Shown: in pieces, positions 1,358 to 16,989 of the stretch | Numbering within the stretch: position 1 is the first letter of the stretch | How the letters are laid out: each line of letters starts with the position of its first letter | Virus record (IMG/VR): IMGVR_UViG_2778261502_000004 | Coordinates: 1 to 16,989 of that record | DNA from: a virus | Lineage: Duplodnaviria > Heunggongvirae > Uroviricota > Caudoviricetes | Direction: 5' to 3' (one strand) | DNA length: 16,989 nucleotides | Position numbers and translations under genes: made by a program | The notes under the pieces: generated by a model | What the model was told of the DNA's origin: nothing | Databases searched by the model: none | What the model saw: only the letters and a program-made list of their open reading frames with translations

Positions 1358-1754
1358 TATTCTCTGGGTCGGTTGTCACATCAGTCGCCTTAATATCATT
1401 CTTATACGTCAGCCACGCCGACAGTTTTGCTCTGTTGGCGTCGCTAATTTCTCCCAGCATCAACTCTGTACGCCAGTCGAGCATCACATCATCAGCATGA
1501 GACAGTAGTTGCTGGCGTTTATTTTCTGCGACCTGAACTAACTCTTCTTTTGTTGGAGGGGGAATATCAGCCCAGGCTGGCATTCCATTCACGCTGGAGA
1601 GAATTTTCCCCTGCGGCCATACACCACCGTATTCCGCTCTTACGGTATCGCTGATTGCAACGGCATCTGATAAATCCCAGCCAGCATCGATATATTCCTG
1701 CATTAGGGACTCGGGAAAAAATGACAGGTTTGCGGGAGACCATAAAAATTCCAT
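1329..1754 (-). CDS. Tail fibre assembly protein (Tfa/U-like), partner of the currently expressed fibre
   Basis: MEFLWSPANLSFFPE...GMPAWADIPPPTKEE...NWPVPPEV; lies immediately downstream of the fibre gene on the same strand. Confidence 0.85.
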   Translation of the reverse strand: MEFLWSPANLSFFPESLMQEYIDAGWDLSDAVAISDTVRAEYGGVWPQGKILSSVNGMPAWADIPPPTKEELVQVAENKRQQLLSHADDVMLDWRTELMLGEISDANRAKLSAWLTYKNDIKATDVTTDPENINWPVPPEV

Positions 1755-1756
1755 AA

Positions 1757-2416: not shown

Positions 2417-2419
2417 GGA

Positions 2420-3004
2420 TTACTCCGGATATTTAAAAATTACGTAGGTATGCGACGGGCAGAGTTTGTTAAGCACGCACTCGACAACGGTGTCCCCCCA
2501 GATACGCAGTGCGGAATCACAGGGATCGCCACATGTCATCCAGGTGGTGTTGGTGGCGGCTGGCATGTTGATCTGCCAGTAATACCGCCATTCAGGCGCG
2601 TTCACAGCGTCAGTACAGGCCGATGAGCAGGTGAACGTGCTTTTGTCGTATCGCGTGATGGTGGCATCTGGTCTGCCCAGGGCAGCAAGCTGTGCAAGAT
2701 AAAAATCCTCGTTGATGCCGCCCGCCAGGTTAACCTTCGCATCCAGCCGTTGCTGACGCTGGCGAAGGGTCTGTGTCCCTGCGGGAATACATTCATCCGG
2801 CAGACCGCACAGACGCTCCCAGCGGTTTATCAGTTCAGTGGTGGTGCGCGGATCCAGCTCCCGCATCAGGGCATCCGCACGCTGATGAACGCGGGTTAAT
2901 GACGGTGCCGCACCGGCAATCGCCGGATCGCTGGCTGACCACGCCGGACCGGGGGGCAACAGTGCCGACAACAGACGGATGTAATCATCGTTTGTCACGT
3001 CCAT
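2420..3004 (-). CDS. Tail/baseplate protein of the YmfQ / Mu gp48 type (DUF2313-like)
   Basis: 194 aa [24 protein letters not shown]...[13 protein letters not shown]; sits directly upstream of the tail-fibre gene as ymfQ does in e14; recognised from memory, not aligned. Confidence 0.75.
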
Positions 3005-3140
3005 GAAATCGTCCCCAGTACCGCCAGTTCATTTTTTGCAATGGAGATATTGTCTGCCGGTGCAAGCAACTGATGGCTGTATTCCCCGTTCGCACCGGAA
3101 ATCGCCTCACTGATACGCGATACCTTCAGTTCTCCCTGCG
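2995..3140 (-). pseudogene. C-terminal remnant of the gene that normally precedes ymfQ (baseplate J-like by synteny)
   Basis: Open frame ...[46 protein letters not shown], stop overlapping the ymfQ-like start (ATGGACGTGA); no start codon; about 48 codons only. Confidence 0.3.
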
Positions 3141-3269
3141 GATATAGGGTTTGTCGCGGTTCGGGTATTCATGTGTTTCCACACGGCGACCGGTTCCCGC
3201 ACTTTCTTCTTCAACCTTAAACGGCACGCCGCGAAATGACGCGTCCTGAAGCCTGTCTTTCCACGTCAT
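3126..3269 (-). pseudogene. N-terminal remnant of a Mu N-like DNA-circularisation / tail protein, cut off after 47 codons
   Basis: MTWKDRLQDASFRGVPFKVEEESAGTGRRVETHEYPNRDKPYIRREN* with GGAG RBS; the SFRGVPF...GRR..HEYP.RD.PY motif matches the N-terminus of this family as I recall it; expected position after the tape measure in Mu-like order. Confidence 0.5.
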
Positions 3270-3285
3270 ATATACTCCGAAAATT

Positions 3286-3310
3286 AAAAAGCCACCTATT
3301 AGAAGGTGGC
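3286..3310 (-). terminator. Rho-independent terminator downstream of the 176-aa gene
   Basis: GCCACCT-TATTAGA-AGGTGGC hairpin; on the minus strand it is followed by TTTTT. Confidence 0.7.
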
Positions 3311-3330
3311 CTTGTAATGAATTTTATTAA

Positions 3331-3861
3331 TTAGCGAGTCAGAAACAACGAATCTTTATACTTTTGCTGTTGTTCATTTAAATACTTAGCTGTTTCATCG
3401 CTGGCAAATGGAAATATTACCGTATTTTTAGGCATGGTAATTTCTTTTTTGTCCAGCGTCAGAGTAAACATAGGAACATACTGAGCAGAGTAACGCACCG
3501 CAGAAACGAGCTCTAGTTTAGACTCTTCAATAACACTTAAATTATCCAGGCTAACTTTCTCTTCATCTTTTTTCTTTGACGCATTTAAAGTTTTTATTAC
3601 TTTATTTAATTTCTCCTGAAAATCCTCCTTAAAGTTTTCAGGATTGCCGTCGACAACAAGAATCTGTTCACCCTGATTATCTGGAAAAATAATCTTTGCA
3701 CTTATCAATTTATTTTCTTTATAAACATCACCAAGTTTTATGGCTCCTCCAGATAACTGAATAATATGTTCATCTTTAAAGGAGATGTTGCCAGAGATTA
3801 TGAGAGATGAAAAAATAGCCGCTGCTCCAAGAATTACACTTGCTGTGATATAGCCTTTCAT
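3331..3861 (-). CDS. Hypothetical membrane-anchored or secreted protein encoded by an AT-rich insertion
   Basis: 176 aa; hydrophobic N-terminus MKGYITASVILGAAAIFSSLIISG then a Lys/Glu/Asp-rich domain; visibly AT-rich between GC-rich tail genes; own terminator. Confidence 0.6.
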   Translation of the reverse strand: MKGYITASVILGAAAIFSSLIISGNISFKDEHIIQLSGGAIKLGDVYKENKLISAKIIFPDNQGEQILVVDGNPENFKEDFQEKLNKVIKTLNASKKKDEEKVSLDNLSVIEESKLELVSAVRYSAQYVPMFTLTLDKKEITMPKNTVIFPFASDETAKYLNEQQQKYKDSLFLTR

Positions 3862-3952
3862 TTTTCGCCTATTAACATTTTTCTAAATGTGCATTAATTC
3901 TATCACTCTATTTATGACTTACAACCAGCAATACATGTGAGGGGAATCCTGG

Positions 3953-5785
3953 CTACCAAAATCGGGTATAGCCAACATCGTGATTTATATCAATGCCACT
4001 GGAGCGTGTTTCCGTAACCCGCATACCTGGTGGCATATTTATAAATGATACCTTGATCTCACCATCAACTTTTGGCGCGGTAGCTTTATTAATCATGAAG
4101 GGATTCGAGCCTGTGGCATCGGAGGCGTTGTTTGCCTGAGCCGGATCCACCGCCGGATAAGGAGTGTATCCCCGTGCCGGTATTCCCGTCCCATAAGCAT
4201 CATAAGCACCCGCGCCCCACTGCGCCGAGTTAATGGTATCGACCGTGTCACCGGAACTGCCGGTAAACCATTCAATAATCGGCTTCAGCTTATCCCACAT
4301 ATCCTGAAACCACTTAACAACCGGTCCCCAGTTATTGATCACCATCCCCAGCGGCGACCAGGCAAAAACCTTCTTCAGAAGTTCCCGGCCAGCCTCAAAA
4401 TAAGGACCAATGGTTTCCCAGAGCTTCTTGAAATAAGGTCCGACAACATCCCAGTTAGTGATAATTAATCCCGCAGCCAGAGCAATCGCCGTCGCAATCA
4501 TGCCAATCGGCGTCATCGACATGATCCTGCTGACAATACTGATGGCACTGCCCACGCCCATCAATCCCAGTTTCAGAATCGCAAGACCGGCAGCAAGCCC
4601 GACGACGCCGCGAATAACCCGGGGATTTTCATCCGCAAACTTCGTGAATTTTTCCCCCAACTCCCCCAGCCATTGCGTGATATTTTTAGCGTCACCAGAA
4701 AATGCGCCGCCAATAGCTGCAAGACCGTTAGTTGCGGTCCCCGTCATTGCCTCCCACAGGTTGGACAGCGTACCAAGCTGTGCCTGAACACGTTTATTCA
4801 GGCTGGCCTGTTTATTCATCTTCTGCTGGATCTGATCGTAACCATCCTTTCCTTTATCGATCAGAGCATTGACCACCTGAAGGGTTTCGGCATCATCACC
4901 AAATATTGCCTTAAGTACACCTGTTCGCTTAACGTCGGTCAGTTTTCGCAGCTTTGCCAGTTGCTTAAACATGTTATCAAGACCGCCAAAACTCCCTTTG
5001 CCGTCAGTAAAATCGAGCTGCACTCCGAGTTTCTGGCGGGCCATGACTTTATTGACGTCCCTGATTTTCTTAACGCTTAATCCGGACTGGATAACTTTTC
5101 GCAGGGCATTACCTGCCGACTCCCCGTTCATCCCCATCTGATCCATCATGACGCTGATAGGGGCAAGGCTCTGTGCAGCCTGAAGTCCGTCCTTATTCAC
5201 CATCTTCAGAACAGAACTGGTTTTAGTGAAGAAGGACAACATGTTGGTATCGTCAACGCCCAGATAAAACGCCTTCTGGATAGTGTCGAACAGTCCCATC
5301 ATGTCTTCTGACGCAGTTCCGGTAGCATCCTGCATCTTTGCAGCAAACTCAGCAGCCGCTTCCGGTGTTTTTTTCAGTTGTACCGCAAGATAAGCTGTCG
5401 CTTTACCCACACCACCAAGAATGTTTTCTGCCGGGATCCCCTGACGCACCAGCATCTGCATCATGTTCTGGAAATCAGCCGTTGTACCGGGTAGCTGGTT
5501 ACCCAGGCCAATAGCCAGTTTATTGATGTCCTGAAAGCTCTTTCCAACCTCGCCGTTCGCATCCATCATGGCGACTTTCAGCCCGGTGGCGGCGTTTTCC
5601 TGATCGGCATAAGATTTCAGGGAAAGCGTCAGACCCGCTGCCAGTCCGCCACCAAGCGCCAGCCCACCCTGTGACGCTTCTTCCGCCTGGCGTTTAAATC
5701 CCCGGATTTTCTTTTGCATTTTCGACAGCGCGGGAGAAAGCCTGTCGACACCGGTGATCAACGCCTTAAGCTCAAATTCAGCCAT
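3953..5785 (-). CDS. Phage tail tape measure protein
   Basis: 610 aa, Ala/Gly/Leu-rich with internal hydrophobic stretches; follows the frameshifted chaperone pair, the conserved tail-gene position. Confidence 0.85.
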   Translation of the reverse strand: MAEFELKALITGVDRLSPALSKMQKKIRGFKRQAEEASQGGLALGGGLAAGLTLSLKSYADQENAATGLKVAMMDANGEVGKSFQDINKLAIGLGNQLPGTTADFQNMMQMLVRQGIPAENILGGVGKATAYLAVQLKKTPEAAAEFAAKMQDATGTASEDMMGLFDTIQKAFYLGVDDTNMLSFFTKTSSVLKMVNKDGLQAAQSLAPISVMMDQMGMNGESAGNALRKVIQSGLSVKKIRDVNKVMARQKLGVQLDFTDGKGSFGGLDNMFKQLAKLRKLTDVKRTGVLKAIFGDDAETLQVVNALIDKGKDGYDQIQQKMNKQASLNKRVQAQLGTLSNLWEAMTGTATNGLAAIGGAFSGDAKNITQWLGELGEKFTKFADENPRVIRGVVGLAAGLAILKLGLMGVGSAISIVSRIMSMTPIGMIATAIALAAGLIITNWDVVGPYFKKLWETIGPYFEAGRELLKKVFAWSPLGMVINNWGPVVKWFQDMWDKLKPIIEWFTGSSGDTVDTINSAQWGAGAYDAYGTGIPARGYTPYPAVDPAQANNASDATGSNPFMINKATAPKVDGEIKVSFINMPPGMRVTETRSSGIDINHDVGYTRFW

Positions 5786-5960
5786 GTGTGCGTTTCTCCT
5801 GCTCTATCCTGTTTGCCTGACTGACCAGTAAGGGAATTTCACTGATCGGCATATTCAGCAATTCGAAAGGATTAATGCGCCAGTAGCTGGCGCAGTCAAA
5901 GAAGCGATCAGTGAGGTATTCAGCCGTCAGGCCTGGAGGAAAAAACCAGCCACAAGCCAC
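5778..5960 (-). CDS. -1 frameshift extension of the tail assembly chaperone (G/GT-type fusion product)
   Basis: ORF in the -1 frame overlapping the chaperone 3' end and the tape-measure start; entered through the slippery heptamer at 5939..5945. Confidence 0.6.
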   Translation of the reverse strand: MACGWFFPPGLTAEYLTDRFFDCASYWRINPFELLNMPISEIPLLVSQANRIEQEKRTHG

Positions 5961-6196
5961 GCCGCTGCATTCAGGTCTGCCGGAGACATCTGGTCGACAG
6001 AGTTTTGCGGCACTTTCGCCAGCCGCACAATGTATTTCGACACCACATGCGCCAGAAGTCTGACGGACTCATCCTGATTCATCTGGTAGGGATACCCCAG
6101 CTCGCGGACATCTTTCCCGGTGGGCTCATCAAACTCCAGTACGGAGAGTGTCTCGCCATGAGCGGTAATCGGTTTCTTTAACTCAAGCTCTTTCAT
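5927..6196 (-). CDS. Tail assembly chaperone (Mu gp41 / lambda G-like)
   Basis: 89 aa between tube and tape measure; ends in the slippery site. Confidence 0.65.
   Translation of the reverse strand: MKELELKKPITAHGETLSVLEFDEPTGKDVRELGYPYQMNQDESVRLLAHVVSKYIVRLAKVPQNSVDQMSPADLNAAAWLVAGFFLQA
5939..5945 (-). other. Programmed -1 ribosomal frameshift slippery heptamer T_TTT_TTC
   Basis: Minus-strand GCT GGT TTT TTC CTC sits 4 codons before the chaperone stop; the -1 frame continues FFPPGLTAEYL... to 5778. Confidence 0.6.
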
Positions 6197-6552
6197 TACT
6201 GGTAATCCCCTTCTTCACCGTGGAACTCAAGATCGACCGTGCCTTCTTCGGCATTATGGTTCGCTTCGCCGTGCAGCCAGGCAGACGACAGTACATAGAC
6301 CTGACCGTTCGCCAGCTCGGCAGTGATGGTCATCTCATCAGACGAGGTGATTTTGCTCACCGGAAAATTCTTCGGCACCTTGAAGGTCCCTTTGACATAG
6401 GGCGCACGGTGAGTTTCCTTGCGGTCCACTGAACCGTCCAGGCCGATGATGTCATCATTGACCGTCCTGTTCATGGGCACCTCAATGCCGCCGGTCAGCG
6501 ATAGCTGCTGACCGTCAATTTTGAAATAACAGGTTCCCCCGATACGGGCCAT
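6196..6552 (-). CDS. Phage tail tube protein (Mu M-like)
   Basis: 118 aa MARIGGTCYFKIDGQQLSLTGG...; TAATG overlap with the sheath stop; sheath-tube-chaperone-tape measure order. Confidence 0.7.
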   Translation of the reverse strand: MARIGGTCYFKIDGQQLSLTGGIEVPMNRTVNDDIIGLDGSVDRKETHRAPYVKGTFKVPKNFPVSKITSSDEMTITAELANGQVYVLSSAWLHGEANHNAEEGTVDLEFHGEEGDYQ

Positions 6553-7457
6553 TATGCAGACTCCTCTGAATACTGAAGACGGAACTGGTTAACCAAGGCA
6601 AAGACACGCAACTGGTTAACATAGTCAGGCGGGAACAGCGTGTTCAGGCGGTTCGGATCGCTGGCATCACGCTCCACAACCAGGTACTGCTTAAACAGTT
6701 CGTAGTTTTCCACGATCCCCGCACGCTCAAGCTGACGGTAGGTTGCCAGCAGTTCCCCTTTGATTACCGCCGGGGTGACAATCGCCTGACCGGGACCAAA
6801 GCGGGTACCGTCGCTGGCAAGCTTGTGACGCCCGTACTTACTGGTAATGACGGATTTCAGTTTGCGCAGTACATACGCACTGGTATGCAGCGTCTCGCTG
6901 TCGAGGTAGCTGTTATCCGCAACCCCGTAAGCATTTTTCCTGTACGTGGTGACATCACGCTGAATGCGCAGCCCCCCGCTTTCGACATACGCCGTTGCCA
7001 CGCCATGAGACAGCAGGGTCTGCTGCTCGGTCATCGTGAACCGTTTCCCCTTCGGCGCAGGCAGCATACCCACCAGCTCACCGGTCTGCGTGGGACGTGC
7101 CGGATCGTTGCGGATAAACACCGCTGCGCGGGCGGTACGGCTTGCCGCCAGCTCGTCGGCAGGCGTCTGGGTCTCTTTTTCGTACCCCGCCAGGGTGATG
7201 TGCTGCTGGTTAAACTGGTCACCTGCGTTCACCAGTTCTGACAGTGTGCCGGTCTTTGCCGTATACACATGACCATACAGCTGACGCGCATAGCTCCAGC
7301 GACCGCTGGTATCGTTCATCTCGGTCACTGTCCCACTTCGAACCGTAGCCGCGCTGATGACGGGATTGTCCTGGTTTGTATTGCTTCCAGCCTTCGCTTT
7401 TGTGGCTTTCGCAGTAGCCTGACGGGTCTGTGGTTGTAGAGCGGCAGCCGCGAACAC
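6552..7457 (-). CDS. Contractile tail sheath protein, 5'-truncated; the upstream part of this ORF is probably out-of-frame read-through from an HNH gene remnant
   Basis: 301-aa ORF with GTG start and no RBS; C-terminal two-thirds sheath-like by synteny and by motifs I recall (RKNAYGVADNSYLD, GQAIVTP, VERDASDPNRLNTLFPPDYVNQ); first ~40 residues are low-complexity Ala/Thr/Lys; sheaths are normally over 370 aa. Confidence 0.6.
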   Translation of the reverse strand: MFAAAALQPQTRQATAKATKAKAGSNTNQDNPVISAATVRSGTVTEMNDTSGRWSYARQLYGHVYTAKTGTLSELVNAGDQFNQQHITLAGYEKETQTPADELAASRTARAAVFIRNDPARPTQTGELVGMLPAPKGKRFTMTEQQTLLSHGVATAYVESGGLRIQRDVTTYRKNAYGVADNSYLDSETLHTSAYVLRKLKSVITSKYGRHKLASDGTRFGPGQAIVTPAVIKGELLATYRQLERAGIVENYELFKQYLVVERDASDPNRLNTLFPPDYVNQLRVFALVNQFRLQYSEESA

Positions 7458-7485
7458 GGCAGGCTTTTGGGGTTCGAGGGGGCAT
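7219..7485 (-). pseudogene. N-terminal fragment of a phage HNH endonuclease fused out of frame to the sheath gene
   Basis: MPPRTPKACRVRGCRSTTTDPSGYCESHKSEGWKQ...RGYGSKWD shows the C-x3-GC...YC-x2-H...RGY..W pattern of the HNH N-terminus; AGGA 8 nt upstream of ATG 7485; similarity is lost after about residue 52. Confidence 0.4.
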
Positions 7486-7543
7486 TATTAATGTCCTAAA
7501 TAGTTTCCTCTCTAAAAACTAATTTGTGTTAGGGAAATCATTA

Positions 7544-7587
7544 AATGAAGTGAACCTTTTAGTACCCACTGTAAAATTCACTTCATT
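7544..7587 (-). terminator. Long inverted repeat just downstream of the 169-aa gene (possible terminator or protein-binding site)
   Basis: AATGAAGTGAA ... TTCACTTCATT, 11-bp perfect arms with a 22-nt loop; no clean U-tract. Confidence 0.35.
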
Positions 7588-7592
7588 AATAT

Positions 7593-8102
7593 TTAACCAA
7601 ATACAATGAATGTTCCAAAAGATGCTAATGATATATTTATCAGAGAATCCATACGAGCCTTAATTTCTGGCGTATCCTCGACCTCAGTACGCCATTGATT
7701 GACTGCCTCAATCATATCTCGACAAAACACATCTATTTGCAACTGAAGTTTGCCATTTAAGTGATTTAAATGCACTTGGCAATTTGGCCTAGGTGGTGGT
7801 GTAAAATTAAACTGCATCATTCTTTTCCTGTTCTCTGGATCCTGTCCAGCATGTAAACAAGAACAACGATACAGCCAAAAATCATCCGCATAAAATCGAC
7901 ACTGTTCATGTGTACCGGATGTATATTTATTTTCAAGATAACGAGAAACCCAATCTTTATACCATTTCCCTGTTTCACCCTTACCTATTTTGGGACGTTC
8001 AACGCTCCTGCAAATATCAGGCATAGCAAGAGCCATAAACAATGCCGCTAACCAATTCTCACTTTCAATTGAAGATTCAATTGATTTTATAAACCTTTCC
8101 AT
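7593..8102 (-). CDS. Hypothetical Cys/His-rich protein encoded by an AT-rich insertion between the lysis cassette and the HNH remnant
   Basis: 169 aa MERFIKSIESSIESENWLAALFMALAMPDICRS...YRCSCLHAG...; visibly AT-rich; no family recognised. Confidence 0.6.
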   Translation of the reverse strand: MERFIKSIESSIESENWLAALFMALAMPDICRSVERPKIGKGETGKWYKDWVSRYLENKYTSGTHEQCRFYADDFWLYRCSCLHAGQDPENRKRMMQFNFTPPPRPNCQVHLNHLNGKLQLQIDVFCRDMIEAVNQWRTEVEDTPEIKARMDSLINISLASFGTFIVFG

Positions 8103-8168
8103 AACTCACCTTTATATTATTTGATGATTATATTTATAGCACAGTTACAATCATTTTCCGGAAAATAT

Positions 8169-8420
8169 TTATTCATTTTGATATCCTATTTTTAGAATAT
8201 CCTTTTTATCTCTATTGCATTGCGCTAATGCAGATAACAAACTCGCATTCAGTTCCAGGCTAGCACCATATGTCAGTGGACTAGGTACAACTGGAATCGG
8301 TGTTTCAGAAGTCAGGCTGGCTGGCAGTGGTACCGCCGGAGTGTTCACGTAAACTGTCCGCGTACTTCCGCAACCGGTCAGCAGCGGCAGCAGGCACAGG
8401 ACGTGAAGCACAATCATCAT
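8169..8420 (-). CDS. Outer-membrane spanin lipoprotein (Rz1-like), overlapping the 3' part of Rz in another frame
   Basis: MMIVLHVLCLLPLLTGCGSTR... with lipobox LLTGC followed by a Pro-rich region; start inside Rz. Confidence 0.65.
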   Translation of the reverse strand: MMIVLHVLCLLPLLTGCGSTRTVYVNTPAVPLPASLTSETPIPVVPSPLTYGASLELNASLLSALAQCNRDKKDILKIGYQNE

Positions 8421-8697
8421 CCGCAACAGCCACTTTGATATCTTCCTGGGTTCTCTGTGACTCCAGTGCAATCTGCTGTTTTGCATGCTGGTTAGCCTCT
8501 ATAACTGTATTGATGATTTGCAGTGATTGCAGAACGTTACGGGTAATGGCAGTTGCTGATTCAGCATTTCGTATAGCCTCATCAACACGCTCCTTTTCGT
8601 GCAGATATTTGCTGTAGTAATGCCCGGCAGACCAGATGAAGGAACCAATGACGGTAACAAAGAAGGCAACAATAACCAGCTTATATCTCAGCTTCAT
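8305..8697 (-). CDS. Inner-membrane spanin (Rz-like)
   Basis: 130 aa with N-terminal transmembrane segment (LVIVAFFVTVIGSFIW) and a coiled-coil-like remainder; start overlaps the endolysin stop. Confidence 0.75.
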   Translation of the reverse strand: MKLRYKLVIVAFFVTVIGSFIWSAGHYYSKYLHEKERVDEAIRNAESATAITRNVLQSLQIINTVIEANQHAKQQIALESQRTQEDIKVAVADDDCASRPVPAAAADRLRKYADSLREHSGGTTASQPDF

Positions 8698-9157
8698 TTA
8701 CTACCCCACCAGCCTCTTTAAACCGGGAAATCAGGTCGCCAATTTTATGTTCATACTGACCGTAACCTGCACCAGGTAACGACGCCCAGATATTGCTGCA
8801 ACGATCGATAGCCTGACGGATATCACCGCGATCAATCATCGGTAAAGCGCCACGCTCTTTAATCTGCTGCAATGCCACAGCGTCCTGGCTTTTCGGAGAG
8901 AAGTCTTTCAGGCCAAGCTGCTTACGATAGGAATCCCACCAACGGGAAAGAAGCTGGTAGCGCCCGGCTGCTGTTGATTTGAGTTTTGGGTTTAGCGTGA
9001 CAAGTTTGCGAGGGTGATCGGAGTAATCAGTAAATAGCTCTCCGCCTACAATGACGTCATAACCATGATTTCTGGTTTTCTGCCGTCCGTTATCCGTTCC
9101 TTCTGACCATGCCACCATATCGAGGAAAGCTTTACGCTGAGGATTAAGATTTTGCAT
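8681..9157 (-). CDS. R: Endolysin, lambda R-type lytic transglycosylase
   Basis: 158 aa MQNLNPQRKAFLDMVAWSEGTDNGRQKTRNHGYDVIVGGELFTDYSDHPRKL..., near-identical to lambda R as I recall it; AGGGGTGA RBS. Confidence 0.93.
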   Translation of the reverse strand: MQNLNPQRKAFLDMVAWSEGTDNGRQKTRNHGYDVIVGGELFTDYSDHPRKLVTLNPKLKSTAAGRYQLLSRWWDSYRKQLGLKDFSPKSQDAVALQQIKERGALPMIDRGDIRQAIDRCSNIWASLPGAGYGQYEHKIGDLISRFKEAGGVVNEAEI

Positions 9158-9311
9158 TTTTCACCCCTGTCAGTCGTTCCCAGAAGTACGTCAGTGCAAC
9201 CGAACCCATTGCACCACTAATCCCCGCTGTCGCGAGAATCATGTAAATACTGAATCCACTTTCGATGCTGATCAGGCCACCAATAACACCGGTGAATCCT
9301 GATATCCGGTC
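9147..9311 (-). pseudogene. Start-less hydrophobic C-terminal remnant, probably of the holin gene
   Basis: Open frame ...SGFTGVIGGLISIESGFSIYMILATAGISGAMGSVALTYFWERLTGVKNAKS* ending in the ATG of R, the position of a holin 3' end; bounded upstream by an in-frame stop, no N-terminal part. Confidence 0.45.
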
Positions 9312-9486
9312 TTAAGTCAGATTTCGTAATTGCACCTGACGTGCATTGCTCAAGTTTTTTAGCCAGCACAAAACTGGCTTTTTTATAGCCATTGAAAACC
9401 AGCCGTAAGTAGCCAGGTGTTGAGCCAACTTTTCCGGCCAACTCGCCCTGCTGTTCTTTGGTTAAAGAGTCCCAATACGCTTTCAT
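9217..9486 (-). CDS. Cro-like HTH regulator (YdaS/Cro family) whose 3' end reads out of frame through the holin remnant
   Basis: Start ATG 9486 with GGAGGT RBS (MKAYWDSLTKEQQGELAGKVGSTPGYLRLVFNGYKKASFVLAKKLEQCTSGAITKSDLRPDI); the last 27 residues (RIHRCYWWPDQHRKW...) are Trp/Arg/His-rich, as expected for the wrong frame of a hydrophobic gene; divergent from cI. Confidence 0.6.
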   Translation of the reverse strand: MKAYWDSLTKEQQGELAGKVGSTPGYLRLVFNGYKKASFVLAKKLEQCTSGAITKSDLRPDIRIHRCYWWPDQHRKWIQYLHDSRDSGD

Positions 9487-9576
9487 ACAATATGTACCTC
9501 CGGTGTACATATTACATGATTAAAATGAACCTTCAAGATACTTGTACCTTAACGGTACAAGGGTTTTAATTTCGTT
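9487..9576. promoter_or_regulatory. Divergent immunity control region with two 19-bp palindromic operators and candidate pR and pRM promoters
   Basis: Operators ATGTACC-N5-TGTACAT (9492..9510) and TTGTACC-N5-GGTACAA (9542..9560); minus-strand promoter TTGAAG (9531..9536) / 16 bp / TAATAT (9509..9514); plus-strand TTTAAT at 9565..9570 lies just before the cI ATG, suggesting a leaderless cI message. Confidence 0.55.
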
Positions 9577-10251
9577 ATGAAAACAATCCATGACATCCGG
9601 CGGTCTAACGCCAGAAAACTGAGAGATGGTGTTGGCGGGAATTCTTCCTTTGCCACTATGATTGATCGCGAGCCAACCCAGACCAGCAGGTTTATGGGAG
9701 ATGGTGCTACTAAAAATATCGGTGACAGCATGGCACGACACATCGAAAAATGTTTCGACCTACCTGTCGGATGGCTCGATCAAGAACACCAGACAACGAA
9801 CATCACAAAAAAACCTGATGTTTCAATCACTAATAAACAAATCACATTAGTCCCTGTCATATCATGGGTACAGGCCGGAGCATGGAAAGAAGTTGGATAT
9901 TCTGAGGTTGATTTGAGCACAGCAGAAACGTATCCCTGCCCTGTACCCTGTGGGGAAATGACTTATATCTTGCGGGTGATAGGTGATTCAATGATTGATG
10001 AGTACCGCCCGGGAGACATGATTTTTGTCGATCCTGAAGTACCTGCCTGCCACGGTGACGACGTTATTGCATTGATGCACGATACAGGTGAAACCACCTT
10101 CAAAAGGTTAATAGAAGATGGGACACAGCGTTATCTCAAAGCGTTAAACCCAAACTGGCCTGAGCCTTACATTAAGATCAACGGTAATTGCTCTATAATT
10201 GGTACAGTGATTTTCTCAGGAAAACCAAGAAGATACAAAATCAAAGCCTAA
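9577..10251 (+). CDS. CI-type prophage repressor: phage-CI HTH N-domain plus LexA/S24-type autocleaving C-domain
   Basis: 224 aa; N-terminal ...GDSMARHIEKCFDLPVGWLDQ; C-terminal domain with Ser in VIGDSM and Lys in TFKRL, the S24 catalytic dyad context. Confidence 0.9.
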   Translation: MKTIHDIRRSNARKLRDGVGGNSSFATMIDREPTQTSRFMGDGATKNIGDSMARHIEKCFDLPVGWLDQEHQTTNITKKPDVSITNKQITLVPVISWVQAGAWKEVGYSEVDLSTAETYPCPVPCGEMTYILRVIGDSMIDEYRPGDMIFVDPEVPACHGDDVIALMHDTGETTFKRLIEDGTQRYLKALNPNWPEPYIKINGNCSIIGTVIFSGKPRRYKIKA

Positions 10252-10263
10252 TCAATGTTTATG

Positions 10264-10288
10264 AACCTGCTTCGGCAGGTTTTTTTAT
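10264..10288 (+). terminator. Rho-independent terminator after cI
   Basis: AACCTGC-TTCG-GCAGGTT stem-loop followed by TTTTTT. Confidence 0.8.
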
Positions 10289-10290
10289 AC

Positions 10291-10323
10291 TTGACAATGT
10301 ACCTTTGAGATACATAATGTACC
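10291..10323 (+). promoter_or_regulatory. pL-like early-left promoter with overlapping operator
   Basis: TTGACA (10291..10296) / 16 bp / CATAAT (10313..10318); operator ATGTACC-N5-GATACAT at 10297..10315 with the same 7-5-7 layout as the cro–cI operators; extra half-site ATGTACC at 10317..10323. Confidence 0.65.
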
Positions 10324-10409
10324 CAAGAGAAACAACGAACAGGCAGGACGCCCACGAAGTAGCCGCCTGGGGCATATGAAGTCCAGGATGATTCGTTAGC
10401 AACAAAAAA

Positions 10410-10440
10410 GCGCCCTACAGGACGCTTAGCTCTTTAACAA
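10410..10440 (+). promoter_or_regulatory. Candidate antitermination site: short hairpin followed by an rrn-type boxA
   Basis: GCTCTTTAACAA (10429..10440) matches the core of the rrn boxA consensus TGCTCTTTAACAA; preceded by hairpin GCGCC-CTACA-GGaCGC (10410..10425); located in the 5' leader downstream of the pL-like promoter. Confidence 0.5.
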
Positions 10441-10485
10441 TCTGGTCCCCATCAACAAGTAACTGATAACTTGAGGAGATGTGAA

Positions 10486-10692
10486 ATGCACAAAACAGAA
10501 CCCAAAATCGTCGCGCCTGGCTACACAGATGAGGAAATTTATGAGTGGATGACAAAGAAGCTGGCAGCTATAAACCAGCTTCGTGAAGTGCTGTCTTATC
10601 GACAGGAAACAATAGACTCCTTAAAAAAACTGGATCAGGAAATCACGGTTTTATCACAGGATGTTACTTTAGATATTGTGCAGACAAATTAG
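10486..10692 (+). CDS. Small hypothetical protein, first gene of the pL-like transcript
   Basis: 68 aa MHKTEPKIVAPGYTDEEIYEWMTKKLAAINQLREVLSYRQETIDSLKKLDQEITVL... ; GAGGAG RBS 7 nt upstream; not Arg-rich, so not an N-type antiterminator. Confidence 0.55.
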   Translation: MHKTEPKIVAPGYTDEEIYEWMTKKLAAINQLREVLSYRQETIDSLKKLDQEITVLSQDVTLDIVQTN

Positions 10693-11098
10693 GATCCCAT
10701 TCATTTTCGTCAAAATCATCAAAGTGATGAATTTGTGATCTCCAGTCTCGATAATCTAAAAATTTCTGGGCGGTTACGCTTATTTTATCAAGTGTGAGTT
10801 CATCCTGAATTGAAAGAAGAAGTTCATCAAATTTCATCTCATTAATCTGTTTTGGCATCCAGTGATGCTTCATCAGAATAAGGTGAACCAGAGCCTTTTT
10901 CCCATTCAACTGATTATAGGGAGTGCCGAATTTCTTCCGGTGCTCATGTAAGACAAGGTCCAAAAGAGTAAGTAATGTTGCCCTTGATTCAACTTTGCTT
11001 ATTTCGACTGATGACACTACCCCACTGATTTCAATGCCCCGATACTTTCCAACATTTTCACAGTGGGATTTGTACAGCGTATAGATATTACCGGACAT
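10664..11098 (-). CDS. Hypothetical protein on the opposite strand, AT-rich, 3' end overlapping the 68-aa gene by 29 bp
   Basis: 144 aa MSGNIYTLYKSHCENVGKYRGIEISGVVSSVEISKVESRATLLTLLDLVLHEHRKKFGTPYNQ...; AAGGA-like RBS; soluble; no family recognised. Confidence 0.55.
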   Translation of the reverse strand: MSGNIYTLYKSHCENVGKYRGIEISGVVSSVEISKVESRATLLTLLDLVLHEHRKKFGTPYNQLNGKKALVHLILMKHHWMPKQINEMKFDELLLSIQDELTLDKISVTAQKFLDYRDWRSQIHHFDDFDENEWDPNLSAQYLK

Positions 11099-11113
11099 TT
11101 CTTTTCCTTTTGC

Positions 11114-11162
11114 GTTGTTGGGGATAACCAGATTAACCGAATCCTTGTTGTTGGGGAATAAC
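11114..11162. repeat. Two direct repeats just upstream of the 144-aa gene start
   Basis: GTTGTTGGGGATAACC (11114..11129) and GTTGTTGGGGAATAAC (11147..11162), 17 bp apart. Confidence 0.5.
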
Positions 11163-11382
11163 TAGGTCCACCTCGCCTGATGTGGCTAAAAGCAGGCACA
11201 TAACAGCTAAGTATTTTCAACCAGAGAGAATCCTTAGCGTTGTGGTGAATGCGGCTCAGCGCACGCGGGTTAAGGTTGAGGCTGACAGTCGACCTTCTGT
11301 GGATACCCACCCGCCTGGTGTGCAACCTTCGCCAGGCACCGGGAGGCACCCGGCACCACAACTTTATGCTGTGTGTAGTCTT

Positions 11383-11429
11383 GGCGGTACCAGCTTGTAC
11401 CCTTGCTTCCGGCTGGTACCGTCCTTTTT
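11383..11429 (+). terminator. Strong rho-independent terminator inside the early-left leader (tL1-like)
   Basis: 10–12 bp GC-rich stem (CGGTACCAGC / GCTGGTACCG), 17-nt loop, then TTTTT. Confidence 0.7.
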
Positions 11430-11431
11430 AC

Positions 11432-11516
11432 AAAACAGAGAAGAGCATCACCGGACGACGGGCTCATAACCCAATCCATCCGGGCGGCAGTCACCGCAGG
11501 TGTTCTTCTCTGTTTT
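11432..11516. repeat. 16-bp inverted repeat enclosing a GC-rich ~53-nt segment, right after the terminator
   Basis: AAAACAGAGAAGAGCA (11432..11447) versus TGTTCTTCTCTGTTTT (11501..11516), one mismatch. Confidence 0.5.
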
Positions 11517-11566
11517 GTGGAGAAACTAACCGACCTTGCAGGGTCGATATGATGAGGAGCAGCAAA

Positions 11567-11929
11567 ATGGCTAGCGAACGCAGTACTGATGTGCAGGCAT
11601 TTATCGGGGAGCTGGACGGCGGCGTATTTGAAACCAAAATCGGCGCAGTTCTCAGTGAAGTCGCTTCCGGTGTGATGAACACGAAAACCAAAGGTAAGGT
11701 CTCGCTCAACCTGGAAATCGAACCGTTTGATGAGAACCGAGTGAAAATCAAACACAAACTCTCATATGTTCGCCCGACTAACCGCGGGAAAATTTCCGAA
11801 GAAGACACCACCGAAACGCCGATGTATGTCAATCGCGGTGGTCGCCTGACTATTCTGCAGGAAGACCAGGGACAGTTACTGACTCTTGCCGGTGAACCTG
11901 ACGGAAAACTCCGCGCAGCAGGTCGTTAA
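11567..11929 (+). CDS. yfdP: YfdP-like early-left prophage protein
   Basis: Likely start ATG 11567 with GAGGAG RBS, 120 aa (the ORF track extends it upstream to 11249 without support); size and position match yfdP of the CPS-53 yfdP–yfdT cluster as I recall it. Confidence 0.55.
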   Translation: MASERSTDVQAFIGELDGGVFETKIGAVLSEVASGVMNTKTKGKVSLNLEIEPFDENRVKIKHKLSYVRPTNRGKISEEDTTETPMYVNRGGRLTILQEDQGQLLTLAGEPDGKLRAAGR

Positions 11930-11994
11930 TATCGTTTTTAATTAACTGATTATTTATCTCATCACTGAATATCTTTATATAGTGAGGACTTATT

Positions 11995-12819
11995 ATGTCT
12001 CAGAACTTAGACGCAACCGCAATTAATCAAATCCATGCCCTTATTTCTGCTCAGGGTGTTAATGAAATTATCAGTAAGATTGGTGCCGATGCTGTGGCAT
12101 TGCCTGAGAATTTCCGCATTCATGATCTGGAAAAATTTAATTTAAATCGCTTCCGTTTCCGTGGTGCGCTTTCCACTGCCAGCATCGATGACTTTACCCG
12201 TTATTCTAAAGATCTTGCAGATGAAGGCACCCGCTGCTTTATCGATGCTGATAATATGCGTGCCGTCAGTGTGCTTAACCTGGGTACTATTGATGAACCA
12301 GGTCACGCAGATAACACCGCCACACTCAAACTGAAAAAGACAGCACCGTTCTCTGCTCTGTTGTCTGTTAACGGCGAGCGTAACTCCCAGAAGTCACTGG
12401 CAGAATGGATTGAAGACTGGGCCGACTATCTTGTGGGCTTTGATGCTAATGGTGACGCTATTCAGGCAACAAAAGCGGCTGCGGCTGTCCGTAAAATCAC
12501 GATTGAAGCAAACCAGACCGCTGATTTTGAAGATAATGACTTCAGCGGCAAACGCTCCCTGATGGAGTCTGTCGAAGCGAAGACCAAAGACATTATGCCA
12601 GTGGCATTTGAATTTAAATGCGTTCCGTTTGAAGGTCTGAAAGAACGTCCGTTTAAATTACGCCTCAGTATTATCACTGGCGATCGTCCTGTACTGGTTC
12701 TGCGCATTATTCAGCTGGAGGCGGTGCAGGAAGAAATGGCTAACGAATTTCGTGATCTGCTTGTTGAGAAATTCAAGGACAGCAAAGTAGAAACCTTTAT
12801 TGGTACTTTCACCGCCTGA
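11995..12819 (+). CDS. yfdQ: YfdQ-like protein (DUF2303 family)
   Basis: 274 aa; GAGGA RBS; size and order as in CPS-53; not aligned. Confidence 0.65.
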
Positions 12820-12831
12820 TTTCATTACTGC

Positions 12832-12853
12832 AAATGCCCCTGCGGGGGCATTT
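12832..12853 (+). terminator. Perfect hairpin between the yfdQ-like and yfdR-like genes (weak terminator or attenuator)
   Basis: AATGCCCC-TGCG-GGGGCATT followed by T-ATGG; short U-tract. Confidence 0.35.
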
Positions 12854-12946
12854 ATGGAAACGTAATTTACTCAATAATCGCCGGATGGTGAGGGATTCTT
12901 TTTACCAGAATTCAGCGCGGTGCAGCGCATATACGTGGAGAACAAA

Positions 12947-13483
12947 ATGTCATTTATTAAAACTTTTTCCGGGAAGCATTTTTATTATGACAGGATAAAT
13001 AAAGACGACATCGATATTAACGATATCGCGGTTTCCCTTTCAAATATCTGTCGCTTTGCCGGTCATCTTTCGCACTTCTACAGCGTCGCCCAACATGCGG
13101 TTCTTTGCAGCCAGCTGGTGCCGCAGGAATTTGCTTTTGAAGCGTTAATGCATGATGCAACAGAAGCGTATTGCCAGGACATTCCCGCACCACTGAAACG
13201 CCTTCTTCCTGACTATAAACAAATGGAAGAAAAAATAGACGCCGTAATCCGTGAGAAATACGGGTTACCTCCAGTTATGAGTACGCCCGTGAAATATGCC
13301 GATCTCATCATGCTGGCAACCGAACGCCGCGATCTCGGGCTTGATGATGGCTCTTTCTGGCCTGTACTGGAAGGTATCCCGGCAACAGAGATGTTCAACG
13401 TGATTCCACTGGCACCGGGCCATGCCTACGGGATGTTTATGGAACGCTTTAACGAGTTATCGGAGTTACGCAAATGCGCATGA
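12947..13483 (+). CDS. yfdR: HD-domain phosphohydrolase, YfdR/YfbR-type 5'-deoxynucleotidase
   Basis: 178 aa from ATG 12947 (GGAG RBS; the track's GTG at 12920 is less likely); H..H in SVAQHAVLC and HD in LMHDATEAY. Confidence 0.8.
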   Translation: MSFIKTFSGKHFYYDRINKDDIDINDIAVSLSNICRFAGHLSHFYSVAQHAVLCSQLVPQEFAFEALMHDATEAYCQDIPAPLKRLLPDYKQMEEKIDAVIREKYGLPPVMSTPVKYADLIMLATERRDLGLDDGSFWPVLEGIPATEMFNVIPLAPGHAYGMFMERFNELSELRKCA

Positions 13484-13836
13484 ATGTTTTCGAAATGGAA
13501 GGGTTTCTTCGTGGGAGATGTGTACCGCGAGATCTGAAAGTAAATGAAACAGATGCTGAATACCTGGTGCGTAAATTCGATGCGCTTGAAGCTAAATATG
13601 CAGCACAGGAAAACAAAGTAATACCAGTGTCAACTGAACTGCCACCAGCAAATGAAAGTGTTTTGTTATTCGATGCTAACGGAGAAGGCTGGCTAATTGG
13701 CTGGCGTTCTCTCTGGTACACCTGGGGACAAAAAGAAACCGGAGAATGGCAGTGGACATTTCAGGTCGGGGACCTTGAAAACGTCAATATCACTCACTGG
13801 GCAGTAATGCCAAAAGCACCGGAGGCTGGAGCATAA
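13474..13836 (+). CDS. yfdS: DUF551-type prophage protein (YfdS-like)
   Basis: 120 aa; C-terminal ...LLFDANGEGWLIGW...ITHWAVMPKAPE pattern typical of DUF551; start overlaps the yfdR-like stop. Confidence 0.7.
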   Translation: MRMNVFEMEGFLRGRCVPRDLKVNETDAEYLVRKFDALEAKYAAQENKVIPVSTELPPANESVLLFDANGEGWLIGWRSLWYTWGQKETGEWQWTFQVGDLENVNITHWAVMPKAPEAGA

Positions 13837-14141
13837 TGACCACTTTTACCGACAAAGAACTGATTAAAGAAATTAAAGAGCGTATCAGCAGCCTTGACGT
13901 GCGAGACGATATTGAGCGCCGTGCTTATGAAATCGCACTCCTATCTCTGGAAGTAGAACCAGATGAACGCGAAGCTTATGAATTATTCATGGAAAAGCGT
14001 TTCGGTGACTTAGTAGATCGTCGGAGAGCAAAAAACGGCGATAACGAATACATGGCATGGGATATGACTCTCGGTTGGATCGTCTGGCAGCAACGAGCTG
14101 GTATCCATTTTTCAACAATGTCACAGCAAGAGGTGAAATAA
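13836..14141 (+). CDS. yfdT: YfdT-like early-left prophage protein
   Basis: 101 aa; TAATG overlap with the preceding gene; size and position match yfdT as I recall it. Confidence 0.55.
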   Translation: MTTFTDKELIKEIKERISSLDVRDDIERRAYEIALLSLEVEPDEREAYELFMEKRFGDLVDRRRAKNGDNEYMAWDMTLGWIVWQQRAGIHFSTMSQQEVK

Positions 14142-14491
14142 TGGAGCCATACAGCCTCACACTCGATGAGGCCTGTCATTTTCTCAAGATATCCAGACCG
14201 ACTGCCATTAACTGGATACGCACAGGGCGTCTTCAGGCAACACGCAAAGATCCCACTAAGAATAAATCTCCTTACCTCACAACACGACAAGCCTGCATTG
14301 CGGCTCTTCAGTCTCCGCTGCATACTGTCCAGGTGAGCGCGGGTGATGGCATAACAGAGGAAAGAAAATGTCACTCTTCCGCAGAGGTGAAATATGGTAC
14401 GCCAGTTTCACATTGCCGAACGGTAAAAGATTTAAACAGTCTCTTGGAACAAAGGACAAAAGGCAGGCGACAGAACTCCATGACAAGCTAA
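14141..14491 (+). CDS. xis: Excisionase (P22 Xis-like)
   Basis: Start ATG 14141 (AGGTGA RBS; TAATG overlap with the previous gene), 116 aa [33 protein letters not shown]...; 3' end overlaps the integrase start by ~124 bp. Confidence 0.8.
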
Positions 14492-15531
14492 AGGCTGAAG
14501 CATGGCGGGTCAGCAAACTTGGTGAAATACCTGATATAACGTTCGAGGAAGCGTGTGTCAGGTGGCTTGAAGAGAAAGCACATAAAAAATCACTGGACGA
14601 TGACAAAAGCCGGATCGGATTCTGGCTTCAACATTTCGCAGGAATGCAACTAAGAGACATTACTGAATCAAAAATTTATTCAGCAATGCAGAAAATGACG
14701 AACCGGCGTCATGAGGAAAACTGGAAACTCAGGGCAGAAGCATGCAGAAAAAAAGGGAAACCTGTTCCAGAATACACGCCAAAACCAGCGTCCGTTGCAA
14801 CGAAGGCTACGCATCTTTCATTTATAAAGGCCCTACTAAGAGCCGCAGAGCGTGAATGGAAAATGCTGGATAAGGCACCAATTATTAAAGTGCCCCAACC
14901 AAAGAATAAACGGATCCGCTGGCTGGAGCCCCATGAAGCACAAAGGCTGATTGATGAATGTCCGGAGCCATTAAAGTCTGTTGTTGAATTTGCACTGGCA
15001 ACAGGCCTAAGACGCTCGAACATCATCAACCTTGAATGGCAACAAATAGATATGCAGCGCCGGGTGGCATGGATAAACCCGGAAGAGAGTAAATCAAACC
15101 GCGCAATTGGCGTTGCGCTGAATGATACTGCATGTCGCGTATTGAAAAAACAAATCGGGAATCATCACCGTTGGGTATTTGTGTACAAGGAAAGCTGTAC
15201 CAAACCAGACGGAACGAAAGCGCCAACAGTCAGGAAGATGCGGTATGACGCAAACACAGCCTGGAAAGCGGCGCTGAGACGGGCTGGTATTGATGATTTC
15301 AGATTTCACGACTTGAGACACACCTGGGCAAGTTGGCTGGTTCAAGCCGGAGTCCCGTTGTCAGTGTTACAGGAAATGGGAGGCTGGGAGTCTATCGAAA
15401 TGGTTCGTCGATATGCTCACCTTGCACCTAATCACCTTACCGAACACGCACGGCAAATAGACTCGATCCTAAACCCATCGGTCCCAAATTTGTCCCAGTC
15501 AAAAAATAAGGAAGGTACTAATGATGTGTAA
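14368..15531 (+). CDS. int: Tyrosine-recombinase integrase of the P22 / SfV family
   Basis: 387 aa [24 protein letters not shown]...; C-terminal [10 protein letters not shown]...VRRYAHL carries the catalytic His/Arg/Tyr context; ends 15 bp from the tRNA 3' end. Confidence 0.93.
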
Positions 15532-15545
15532 CTTATTGATTTAAA

Positions 15546-15621
15546 TGGTGCCGATAATAGGAGTCGAACCTACGACCTTCGCATTACGAATGCGCTGCTC
15601 TACCAACTGAGCTATATCGGC
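15546..15621 (-). tRNA. thrW: tRNA-Thr (anticodon CGU), the attachment tRNA
   Basis: Reverse complement reads GCCGATATAGCTCAGTTGGTAGAGCAGCGCATTCGTAATGCGAAGGTCGTAGGTTCGACTCCTATTATCGGCACCA, 76 nt with CCA end and anticodon loop CATTCGTAATG. Confidence 0.97.
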
Positions 15622-15735
15622 CCTGAAAGGACATGTTCACGAACGTGAATCACGGTGGACAAGGTTAAAACTAACCGGGCGATGCGTCAATGGCCTTGTG
15701 AATCAAATGGCTACTTTTGCATCACCCGGTTTTAT

Positions 15736-16989
15736 TTACGCACGAATGGTGTAATCACCAATGCCGATCCACTTGTAAGTGGTCAGTGCTTCCAGCCCCA
15801 TTGGGCCACGCGCGTGGAGTTTTTGTGTGCTTACCGCCACTTCCGCACCCAGACCAAACTGGCCGCCGTCGGTAAAACGCGTAGAGGCGTTAACGTAAAC
15901 AGCGGACGAATCCACTTCGTTAACAAAACGCTGGGCGTTGCGCATATCGCGGGTCAGGATCGCATCGGAGTGTTGTGTGCCGTGTTCACGAATATGGGCG
16001 ATGGCATCGTCAAGATCGCTGACGATTTTGACGTTCAAATCTAATGACAGAAACTCATCGTCATACTCTTCGGCTTTAACAGCAACCACCTTCGCAGGGC
16101 CTGCCTGCAACTGCGCCAGTGCAGCTGCATCTGCGTGTAATGTCACGCCGCTTTCCGCCATTTGTTTGCTTAATGCGGGCAGGAAGCTATCGGCGATGTT
16201 TTTATTCACCAGCAACGTTTCAACCGTATTACATGTGCTCGGACGCTGAGTTTTCGCGTTGACGATCACTTTTAATGCTTCAGCGATCTCTACACTTTCA
16301 TCAACGTAAATATGGCATACGCCTATACCACCTGTGATCACCGGGATTGTCGACTGTTCACGGCACAGTTTATGCAAACCAGCGCCACCACGCGGGATCA
16401 GCATGTCGATGTATTTATCCATACGCAGCATTTCACTGACCAGCGCACGGTCAGGATTATCAATCGCCTGCACGGCACCCGCCGGTAAGCCGCAGGATTT
16501 CAGGGCGTCCTGAATCACCGCCACCGTTGCAGCGTTAGTGCGACACGTTTCTTTGCCACCGCGCAGGATCACCGCATTACCGGTTTTCAGGCACAGCGAA
16601 GCGACATCAACCGTCACGTTCGGGCGCGCTTCATAAATCACGCCAATAACCCCCAGCGGTACGCGACGACGCTCAAGACGCAGGCCGCTGTCCAGTACGC
16701 CGCCATCGATTACCTGCCCCACCGGATCGGCGAGGTTGCACACCTGACGTACATCGTCGGCAATGCCTTTCAGCCGTGCGGGCGTCAGTGCCAGACGGTC
16801 AAGCATCGCTTCGCTAAGGCCATTGGCTCGCGCGTCAGCAACATCCTGGGCGTTAGCGTTGAGGATGATTTCGCTTTGTGCTTCCAGTTCATCGGCGATT
16901 TTTTCCAGCACGCGATTTTTTTCGCGGCTGGAGAGTTGCGCTAATTTATACGAGGCTTGCTTCGCGGCAATGCCCATTTGTTCCAGCAT
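15736..16989 (-). CDS. proA: Gamma-glutamyl phosphate reductase (proline biosynthesis)
   Basis: Complete 417-aa ORF starting exactly at the window end ([27 protein letters not shown]...); recognised as E. coli ProA; adjacent to thrW as in E. coli. Confidence 0.97.

Follow-up and report, generated by a model that had tools for sequence, protein, structure and literature searches.

A stretch of viral DNA of 16,989 nt (IMG/VR record IMGVR_UViG_2778261502_000004, positions 1–16,989; hereafter the window, meaning this whole stretch) carries five tightly packed genes at positions 11567–14141 which, judged by their sequences, are the known yfdP-yfdQ-yfdR-yfdS-yfdT block of the cryptic CPS-53 (KplE1) prophage of Escherichia coli K-12. 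This assignment is correct but ordinary, the block having already been described, and it carries little weight as a discovery, as the genes already bear names, are annotated across thousands of genomes and have been characterized in part. What is new here is the composite nature of the block and the yfdP–yfdQ pair as its core. The block combines an obligate yfdP–yfdQ pair, a frequent yfdR add-on, and yfdS and yfdT, which are mosaic and interchangeable. The unit worth studying is the pair with YfdR as a frequent add-on, not the five-gene block of K-12. The five genes are as follows:

11567–11929, + strand: yfdP, 120 aa, conserved partner of yfdQ
11995–12819, + strand: yfdQ, 274 aa, DUF2303
12947–13483, + strand: yfdR, 178 aa, predicted HD-domain phosphohydrolase
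13474–13836, + strand: yfdS, 120 aa, small mosaic protein carrying DUF551 at its C-terminus
13836–14141, + strand: yfdT, 101 aa, mosaic small acidic protein whose start codon overlaps the yfdS stop codon

Composition of the block across species

Co-occurrence was examined in 80 loci with YfdQ relatives, each from a different species, whose open reading frames (ORFs) were searched with the window proteins. In 79 of the 80 loci YfdQ is immediately preceded by a YfdP homologue, and the remaining locus is truncated by the end of its contig; the two genes are thus found together wherever upstream DNA is available, over a range that takes in enterobacteria, Marinobacter, and Vibrio and Xanthomonas phages. 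YfdR is encoded within 6 kb downstream of YfdQ in 59/80 loci, usually immediately after it, while YfdS and YfdT were found in six and four of the loci, respectively. The pair occurs without YfdR in Marinobacter, Kistimonas, Alcanivorax and other distant loci, and YfdR-type proteins occur elsewhere without the pair. It is these frequencies, together with the independent occurrence of YfdR-type proteins, that lead us to regard the block as composite. Its placement between repressor and integrase recurs across the 80 species, and yfdP–yfdQ is among the commoner early-operon pairs in temperate phages of Gammaproteobacteria.

The pair is also found, with a gap of ∼55–65 nt between the two genes, in Shiga toxin (Stx) phage TL-2011c, Vibrio phage 34E29.1, a Halomonas phage and Xanthomonas phage Olaya, where it adjoins SSB, RecT, exonuclease or DnaQ-like genes and has no adjacent HD gene.

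Three further observations fit the composite view, namely the sharing of 42 residues between YfdT and another phage protein (see below), a hairpin in the gap after yfdQ, and the listing of 'yfdPQ' as an operon in K-12 in the paper on the regulator SrsR (PMC9181523). The distances between consecutive genes are 65 nt for yfdP–yfdQ, 127 nt for yfdQ–yfdR, −10 for yfdR–yfdS, and −1 for both yfdS–yfdT and yfdT–xis, so that a hairpin-bearing gap after yfdQ contrasts with the mutual overlaps of yfdR, yfdS, yfdT and the excisionase gene xis. The element read in this 127-nt gap is:

12834–12851, + strand: G+C-rich hairpin, ATGCCCC-TGCG-GGGGCAT, followed by TTAT

The terminator scan did not pick up this hairpin, which on its sequence may possibly be a partial terminator splitting yfdPQ from yfdRST-xis-int.

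YfdQ is essentially absent from plasmids. The idea that the genes belong to the leading region of conjugative plasmids was rejected, as only 23 of 72,556 plasmid records match YfdQ, of which 20 are predicted to be non-mobilizable; several of the 23 are chromosome-sized and several phage-sized (33–45 kb).

Identity with the K-12 block and coding capacity

The first-pass annotation of the window had likened the five genes, by their sizes and order, to the K-12 cluster. This likeness is borne out by the K-12 annotation, which gives 120, 274, 178, 120 and 101 aa in the same order, and by alignment, which gives 95–99% protein identity within a collinear block of DNA. In ungapped BLASTP alignments, identity is 118/120 (98%) for YfdP, 272/274 (99%) for YfdQ, 174/178 (98%) for YfdR, 114/120 (95%) for YfdS and 97/101 (96%) for YfdT. 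A single blastn segment of 2,647 bp pairs window positions 11548–14194 with positions 9586–12232 of the K-12 locus at 96.7% identity. The mosaic unit held in common therefore starts 19 nt 5′ of yfdP and ends ∼50 nt inside the excisionase gene, of which ypdJ is the K-12 remnant. Gene order, lengths, orientation and overlaps are all as in CPS-53, whereas the two copies have different surroundings: the K-12 block comes after the yfdO remnant and is followed by ypdJ/torI at the argW site, while the block of the window has an STnc100-like element upstream, a different xis–int downstream and a tRNA-Thr(CGU) site.

Copies of the block are widespread in E. coli. DNA of window positions 11400–14500 was matched in 3,884 of 5,426 complete E. 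coli genomes, with at least 80% of the stretch matched in 1,574, and the RefSeq gene names in matching genomes are yfdP, yfdQ, yfdR and yfdT. The same stretch is 99.2–99.7% identical to functional Shigella phages SfV and SfIV and is also present in Stx2c phages and others; a scan of viral contigs for related loci returned only near-identical E. coli prophage copies. SfV (orf29–32) and SfIV (gp30–34) carry a near-identical block region, and SfIV is collinear with the window from ∼9301 to 15591, across repressor, block, xis and int. Both are complete functional phages, in contrast to the window prophage, which has lost the cro-to-endolysin genes, the head genes and most of the baseplate genes.

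All five genes are under purifying selection, with ratios of non-synonymous to synonymous substitution (dN/dS) against the K-12 copies of 0.06–0.14 per gene and 0.09 overall; synonymous changes thus greatly exceed non-synonymous ones, from which we conclude that all five are real coding genes. In the ORF list, two of the starts, those of yfdP (11567) and yfdR (12947), are ATG codons internal to longer ORFs (11249–11929 and 12920–13483, respectively). The 120-aa YfdP begins at the same first residue as its homologues in four distant phages, and RefSeq gives the same coordinates, which supports 11567 as the correct yfdP start and indicates that the 226-aa YfdP annotated in phage SfIV is too long.

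Protein families and predicted structures

The presence of a DUF2303 protein in the cassette, as the first-pass annotation had proposed, is clear: YfdQ matches DUF2303 (PF10065) at 309.7 bits against a gathering score of 26.6, over profile positions 2–269 of 269. The local copy of Pfam gave no family for YfdP, for which the precomputed annotation of a 98%-identical cluster (P0121) and of all listed homologues is PF27127.1. The DUF551 signature ascribed to the fourth gene was recovered marginally, with YfdS exceeding the cut-off for DUF551 (PF04448) by 0.2 bit (22.2 against 22.0; residues 50–117, profile positions 3–68 of 68); K-12 YfdS is the named member of this family. YfdS also matches phrog_583, and its N-terminal 50 aa match other PHROGs. 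YfdT matches phrog_660, and searches of Pfam and NCBIfam gave no family for it.

Over its N-terminal 42 aa, YfdT shares 86% identity with the N-terminus of a protein of phage PhiR47_1 that is 269 aa long and annotated as 'Ea22'. YfdT was nevertheless rejected as an Ea22 relative, having no similarity to Ea22 of lambda. DUF551 is also present in some Ea22 variants (PMC10834534). The exo–xis region of lambda (ea22, ea8.5, orf60a/61/63) likewise lies between early-left functions and xis-int, and encodes small acidic mosaic proteins, as do yfdS and yfdT. The isoelectric points of the five window proteins range from 4.8 to 5.9 (YfdQ 4.97, YfdP 5.88).

The predicted structure of YfdQ (mean model confidence, pLDDT, 75) combines a helix at the N-terminus with alpha/beta subdomains and a loop at residues 171–197 that is strongly conserved but of low confidence and predicted to be disordered. 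YfdP (pLDDT 67) is modelled as a three-stranded sheet against which a single long helix packs, together with a conserved tail that is disordered. A fold-library search, in which PDB 9o7m was not among the entries, gave no meaningful fold neighbour for either model and hence no function. A YfdQ homologue has in fact been solved: PDB 9o7m ('YfdQ Protein'), found by sequence, comprises 36 chains of one sequence, which is 98.8% identical to a protein of Xanthomonas phage MET23-P3 and belongs to a Xanthomonas/Xylella phage group. The 36 chains may reflect a large YfdQ assembly; our literature search found no publication mentioning this entry. In a podophage of Burkholderia, a DUF2303 protein is reported to be associated with the virion (PMC9144972).

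The HD site of YfdR

The HD motifs noted earlier in the third gene are present and strongly conserved. A set of 57 homologues retains each of H50, H69, D70, E73 and D78 of YfdR at a frequency of at least 97%, a level at which the Asp ligand nearest the C-terminus could not be confirmed. The HD residues align with the corresponding residues of Atu1052 (PDB 2gz4) and YfbR (PDB 2paq) in a PDB sequence search, in which similarity was closer to Atu1052 (3e-14) and marginal to YfbR (E 0.88). Both belong to the HD-domain fold family and have the H…HD..E….D motif in common with YfdR. YfdR matches phrog_318, 'deoxyribonucleoside 5′ monophosphate phosphatase', at 3e-110. It scores below the gathering thresholds of both relevant Pfam families (PF12917 YfbR-like, 25.2 against 25.9; PF13023 HD_3, 17.5 against 22.5), and its HD membership therefore rests on the motif, the similarity to 2gz4 and the PHROG matches. 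It also fails the NCBIfam YfbR equivalog model NF003009 (20.5 bits against 122). From these comparisons YfdR is identified as an HD-domain phosphohydrolase with a predicted intact HD site, and is classed as distinct from YfbR equivalogs.

In PMC4776307, in a passage citing Zimmerman et al. (2008), YfdR is described as structurally homologous to YfbR and as binding nucleotides far less tightly, and its function is called elusive. YfdR thus differs from YfbR in being reported both as a much weaker enzyme and as a binder of DnaA. Since the HD site appears intact, a weak phosphatase activity on deoxynucleoside 5′-monophosphates (5′-dNMPs) probably coexists with a role in DnaA binding. YfdR-type HD proteins were found in 333 phage records, many of them of lytic or jumbo phages.

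Position in the early-left operon

The sequence context places the block in the distal part of the predicted repressor-controlled early-left operon of a decayed lambdoid prophage, SfV/SfIV-like and integrated at tRNA-Thr(CGU). This placement is based on the order of repressor, PL-like promoter with shared operator-like repeats, block, xis and int. The relevant features are:

9493–9509 and 9543–9559: operator-like sites, related to those over the PL-like promoter, upstream of the repressor gene
9577–10251, + strand: cI-like repressor gene (phrog_4 transcriptional repressor, UmuD-like S24 part)
10263–10282, + strand: terminator-like hairpin, just after the cI-like gene
10291–10334, + strand: PL-like early-left promoter including operators; promoter proper at 10291–10318 (TTGACA-16-CATAAT, 11/12 matches)
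10298–10314, + strand: operator-like site over the PL-like promoter, TGTACCTTTGAGATACA
10318–10334, + strand: operator-like site over the PL-like promoter, TGTACCCAAGAGAAACA
10471–10692, + strand: conserved phage ORF, 73 aa, phrog_1744
10664–11098, − strand: conserved phage ORF, 144 aa, phrog_5286, antisense to the early-left transcript
14141–14491, + strand: excisionase gene xis, HTH_17 (Pfam HTH_17 1.6e-08; phrog_2907 excisionase 1e-50)
14368–15531, + strand: tyrosine integrase gene (Pfam Phage_integrase 3e-48; RefSeq annotation of a 99.7%-identical locus)
15546–15621, − strand: tRNA-Thr(CGU) (ARAGORN; Rfam tRNA 71.8 bits), prophage end and integration site

The four operator-like copies share the motif TGTACC-N5-(G/A)xTACA and are candidate OR/OL operators, their arrangement being as expected of OL and OR; promoter function is suggested by the consensus and the repeats. 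The xis start may instead be 14057, where RefSeq places it; the RefSeq annotation beyond the integrase continues with tRNA-Thr, proA and proB. The phrog_1744 and phrog_5286 ORFs are convergent, overlap by 29 nt and lie between the PL-like promoter and the small RNA (sRNA)-like element upstream of yfdP. They were found beside yfdPQ in nine and six of the 80 loci, respectively.

Block of DnaA-dependent initiation as the proposed function

On balance, and by analogy with the K-12 proteins, we favour the view that this repressor-controlled block acts in host takeover through a DnaA-directed block of replication initiation. The K-12 block was isolated as a multicopy suppressor of the over-initiation of hda-185 (Noguchi and Katayama, 2016; PMC4776307). 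The same study reports that multicopy yfdQ and yfdR together with either yfdS or yfdT block initiation at oriC, with yfdQ being required; that in vitro replication from oriC is inhibited by extracts containing an excess of the four proteins; and that YfdR binds DnaA domain I at Phe46, in competition with DiaA and DnaB in vitro. In the proposed sequence of events, inactivation of the LexA-like repressor would lead to transcription of the operon ahead of xis and int. The YfdR produced would bind domain I of the host DnaA at Phe46 and compete with DiaA and DnaB, as seen in vitro for the K-12 protein (PMC4776307), whose 98% identity to YfdR of the window is the ground for extending this binding to it. 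Acting with YfdQ plus one of YfdS and YfdT, it would then prevent new initiation at oriC, an effect reported from multicopy plasmids only (PMC4776307). The outcome may be a host-takeover or cell-cycle function, like that of lambda P on DnaA.

There are precedents among proteins that bind DnaA. DiaA and DnaB engage the same Phe46 surface as YfdR, SirA of Bacillus subtilis engages the equivalent residue (PMC4776307), and lambda P resembles YfdR in outcome, namely reduced initiation at oriC. Lambda P, DiaA and SirA have no sequence relationship to YfdR, however, and lambda P binds domain III of DnaA. Unlike these regulators, YfdR is also dependent in vivo on YfdQ and on YfdS or YfdT.

Several points weigh against this proposal. 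The phenotype was seen on overexpression only; initiation was unaffected when yfdQRST was deleted from K-12, loss of the genes gave no phenotype in normally growing cells, and an overexpression artefact is allowed for by the authors of that study (PMC4776307). The DnaA effect is known for the K-12 protein, whereas the window genes are read from sequence. YfdP is dispensable in the multicopy assay (PMC4776307) although it is the most faithful partner of YfdQ, and thus the assay may miss the real function of the pair. The window prophage has neither replication nor head genes, which would make a takeover function currently useless to it. In addition, HD proteins of the YfdR family are found widely among lytic and jumbo phages whose hosts are distant from E. 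coli, which argues for a general nucleotide-related rather than a DnaA-specific role.

Alternative explanations

This last point leads to the possibility, raised in the first-pass annotation, that nucleotide pools are manipulated, with YfdR acting mainly as a 5′-deoxynucleotidase on dNMPs during phage development and its neighbours being passengers. The conserved HD residues, the match to PHROG dNMP phosphatase families, the RefSeq product name (5′-deoxynucleotidase) and the occurrence of homologues among the 333 phage records, including lytic and jumbo phages without yfdPQ, are all consistent with it. The catalytic residues thus stand, but the nucleotide affinities reported in the cited passage of PMC4776307 are far below those of YfbR, YfdR falls short of the YfbR equivalog model and both Pfam cut-offs, and the published phenotype requires YfdQ and YfdS or YfdT and acts via DnaA binding. 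We consider this explanation possible, with perhaps one chance in a few of being the main function. It is doubtful, but conceivable, that YfdP and YfdQ instead form an obligate two-protein phage module with a biochemical activity of an undescribed kind, the effect of YfdR on DnaA being a side branch of a true role in host takeover or counter-defence; room for such an activity is left by the lack of a match to any known functional fold, the conserved YfdQ loop at 171–197 and the 36-chain entry. We judge it similarly doubtful that the block is kept as an aid to the host under stress (oxidative or DNA damage) rather than for the phage. Such a benefit to the lysogen would fit the finding that two prophages which decayed independently (CPS-53 at argW and the remnant at tRNA-Thr) both keep the block intact and under purifying selection, as well as the abundance of the block in the complete E. 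coli genomes. Deletions of yfdQ and yfdS raise sensitivity to H2O2, and deletion of yfdQ mildly raises that to methyl methanesulfonate (MMS), as far as the work is cited in the relevant passage of PMC4776307, and the host regulator SrsR binds upstream of yfdP in K-12 (PMC9181523). The SrsR-bound region is missing from the window, however, where homology to K-12 begins at 11548 and a pattern search found no SrsR-like boxes. Furthermore, a repressor-controlled promoter and a terminator-bearing sRNA-like element precede the block, which would be expected to be largely silent in the lysogen, and the selection may have acted in active phages, given the near-identical copies in SfV, SfIV and Stx phages.

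The remaining two explanations are considerably less probable. A role in anti-defence, in which one or more of the five proteins would neutralize a host immune system, was also suggested in the first-pass annotation and found no support in PADLOC, in the fold searches or in the literature searched. That the genes are early-expressed, small and acidic, and that YfdS and YfdT are mosaic and variable as in many anti-defence loci, is circumstantial only. None of the five proteins, nor the two upstream ORFs, matched a PADLOC defence model, although anti-defence proteins lie outside the scope of PADLOC; neither did the fold searches reveal a structural resemblance to any known inhibitor, and the yfdPQ pair, far from being variable, is strictly conserved. 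We regard such a role as very unlikely. More improbable still is that YfdP–YfdQ is an unrecognized recombination or DNA-repair module replacing missing Red/RecET-type functions. The early-left operon of the window has no recognizable recombinase, the pair adjoins SSB, RecT, exonuclease or DnaQ-like genes in other phages, and the mild MMS sensitivity cited above points in the same direction. A 2025 survey of lambdoid phages, in which a yfdP/yfdQ/yfbR-like trio is fairly common in early-left operons (PMC12315714), considers a recombinase role unlikely, arguing from phage ArgO145 in the same way as we do from TL-2011c and Xanthomonas phage Olaya, where the pair coexists with complete recombination modules. 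It is on this coexistence and on the survey that the recombinase idea was rejected. YfdQ and YfdP are, moreover, acidic, and neither model matches the annealase folds of the Rad52, Rad51 or Gp2.5 type.

An STnc100-like element upstream of yfdP

Window positions 11209–11432 (+ strand) match the whole length of the model for the STnc100 prophage sRNA family (Rfam RF02076), with a score of 43.4 bits (E 5e-08) against a gathering score of 47. The match sits in a G+C-rich stretch of 360 nt without an intact ORF, directly 5′ of yfdP. The matching sequence folds better than 200 of 200 shuffled sequences (z −3.1) and has a strong terminal hairpin followed by a U run. RefSeq annotates the stretch as a 'frameshifted hypothetical protein' and in SfIV it is merged into the 226-aa YfdP; it is more likely to be an RNA element than a protein gene. 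The terminator that it is predicted to contain would separate yfdP from the PL-like promoter. The stretch is missing from CPS-53 of K-12. Background on the STnc100 family is given in bioRxiv 10.64898/2026.05.13.724894.

Decay of the prophage

Positions 1–9510 of the window are a heavily deleted remnant of an SfV/SfIV-like myovirus. A cro-like gene (∼9286–9486, − strand) abuts a holin fragment and an endolysin gene (8681–9157), with a junction near 9304, so that the early-right operon beyond cro has no cII-like, replication or Q genes. This junction was found in none of the 5,426 complete E. coli genomes. The tail sheath (6552–7457) and tape measure (3953–5785) genes are truncated, and the head and terminase genes are missing. 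At the left end of the window lie the following features:

1–525, − strand: DNA invertase gene, running off the window
516–914 and 908–1357, + strand: tail-fibre C-terminal and tail-fibre-assembly ORFs
1329–1754 and 1757–2416, − strand: tail-fibre C-terminal and tail-fibre-assembly ORFs

From its sequence, the region 1–2416 looks like an invertible tail-fibre segment of the Gin/Cin type.

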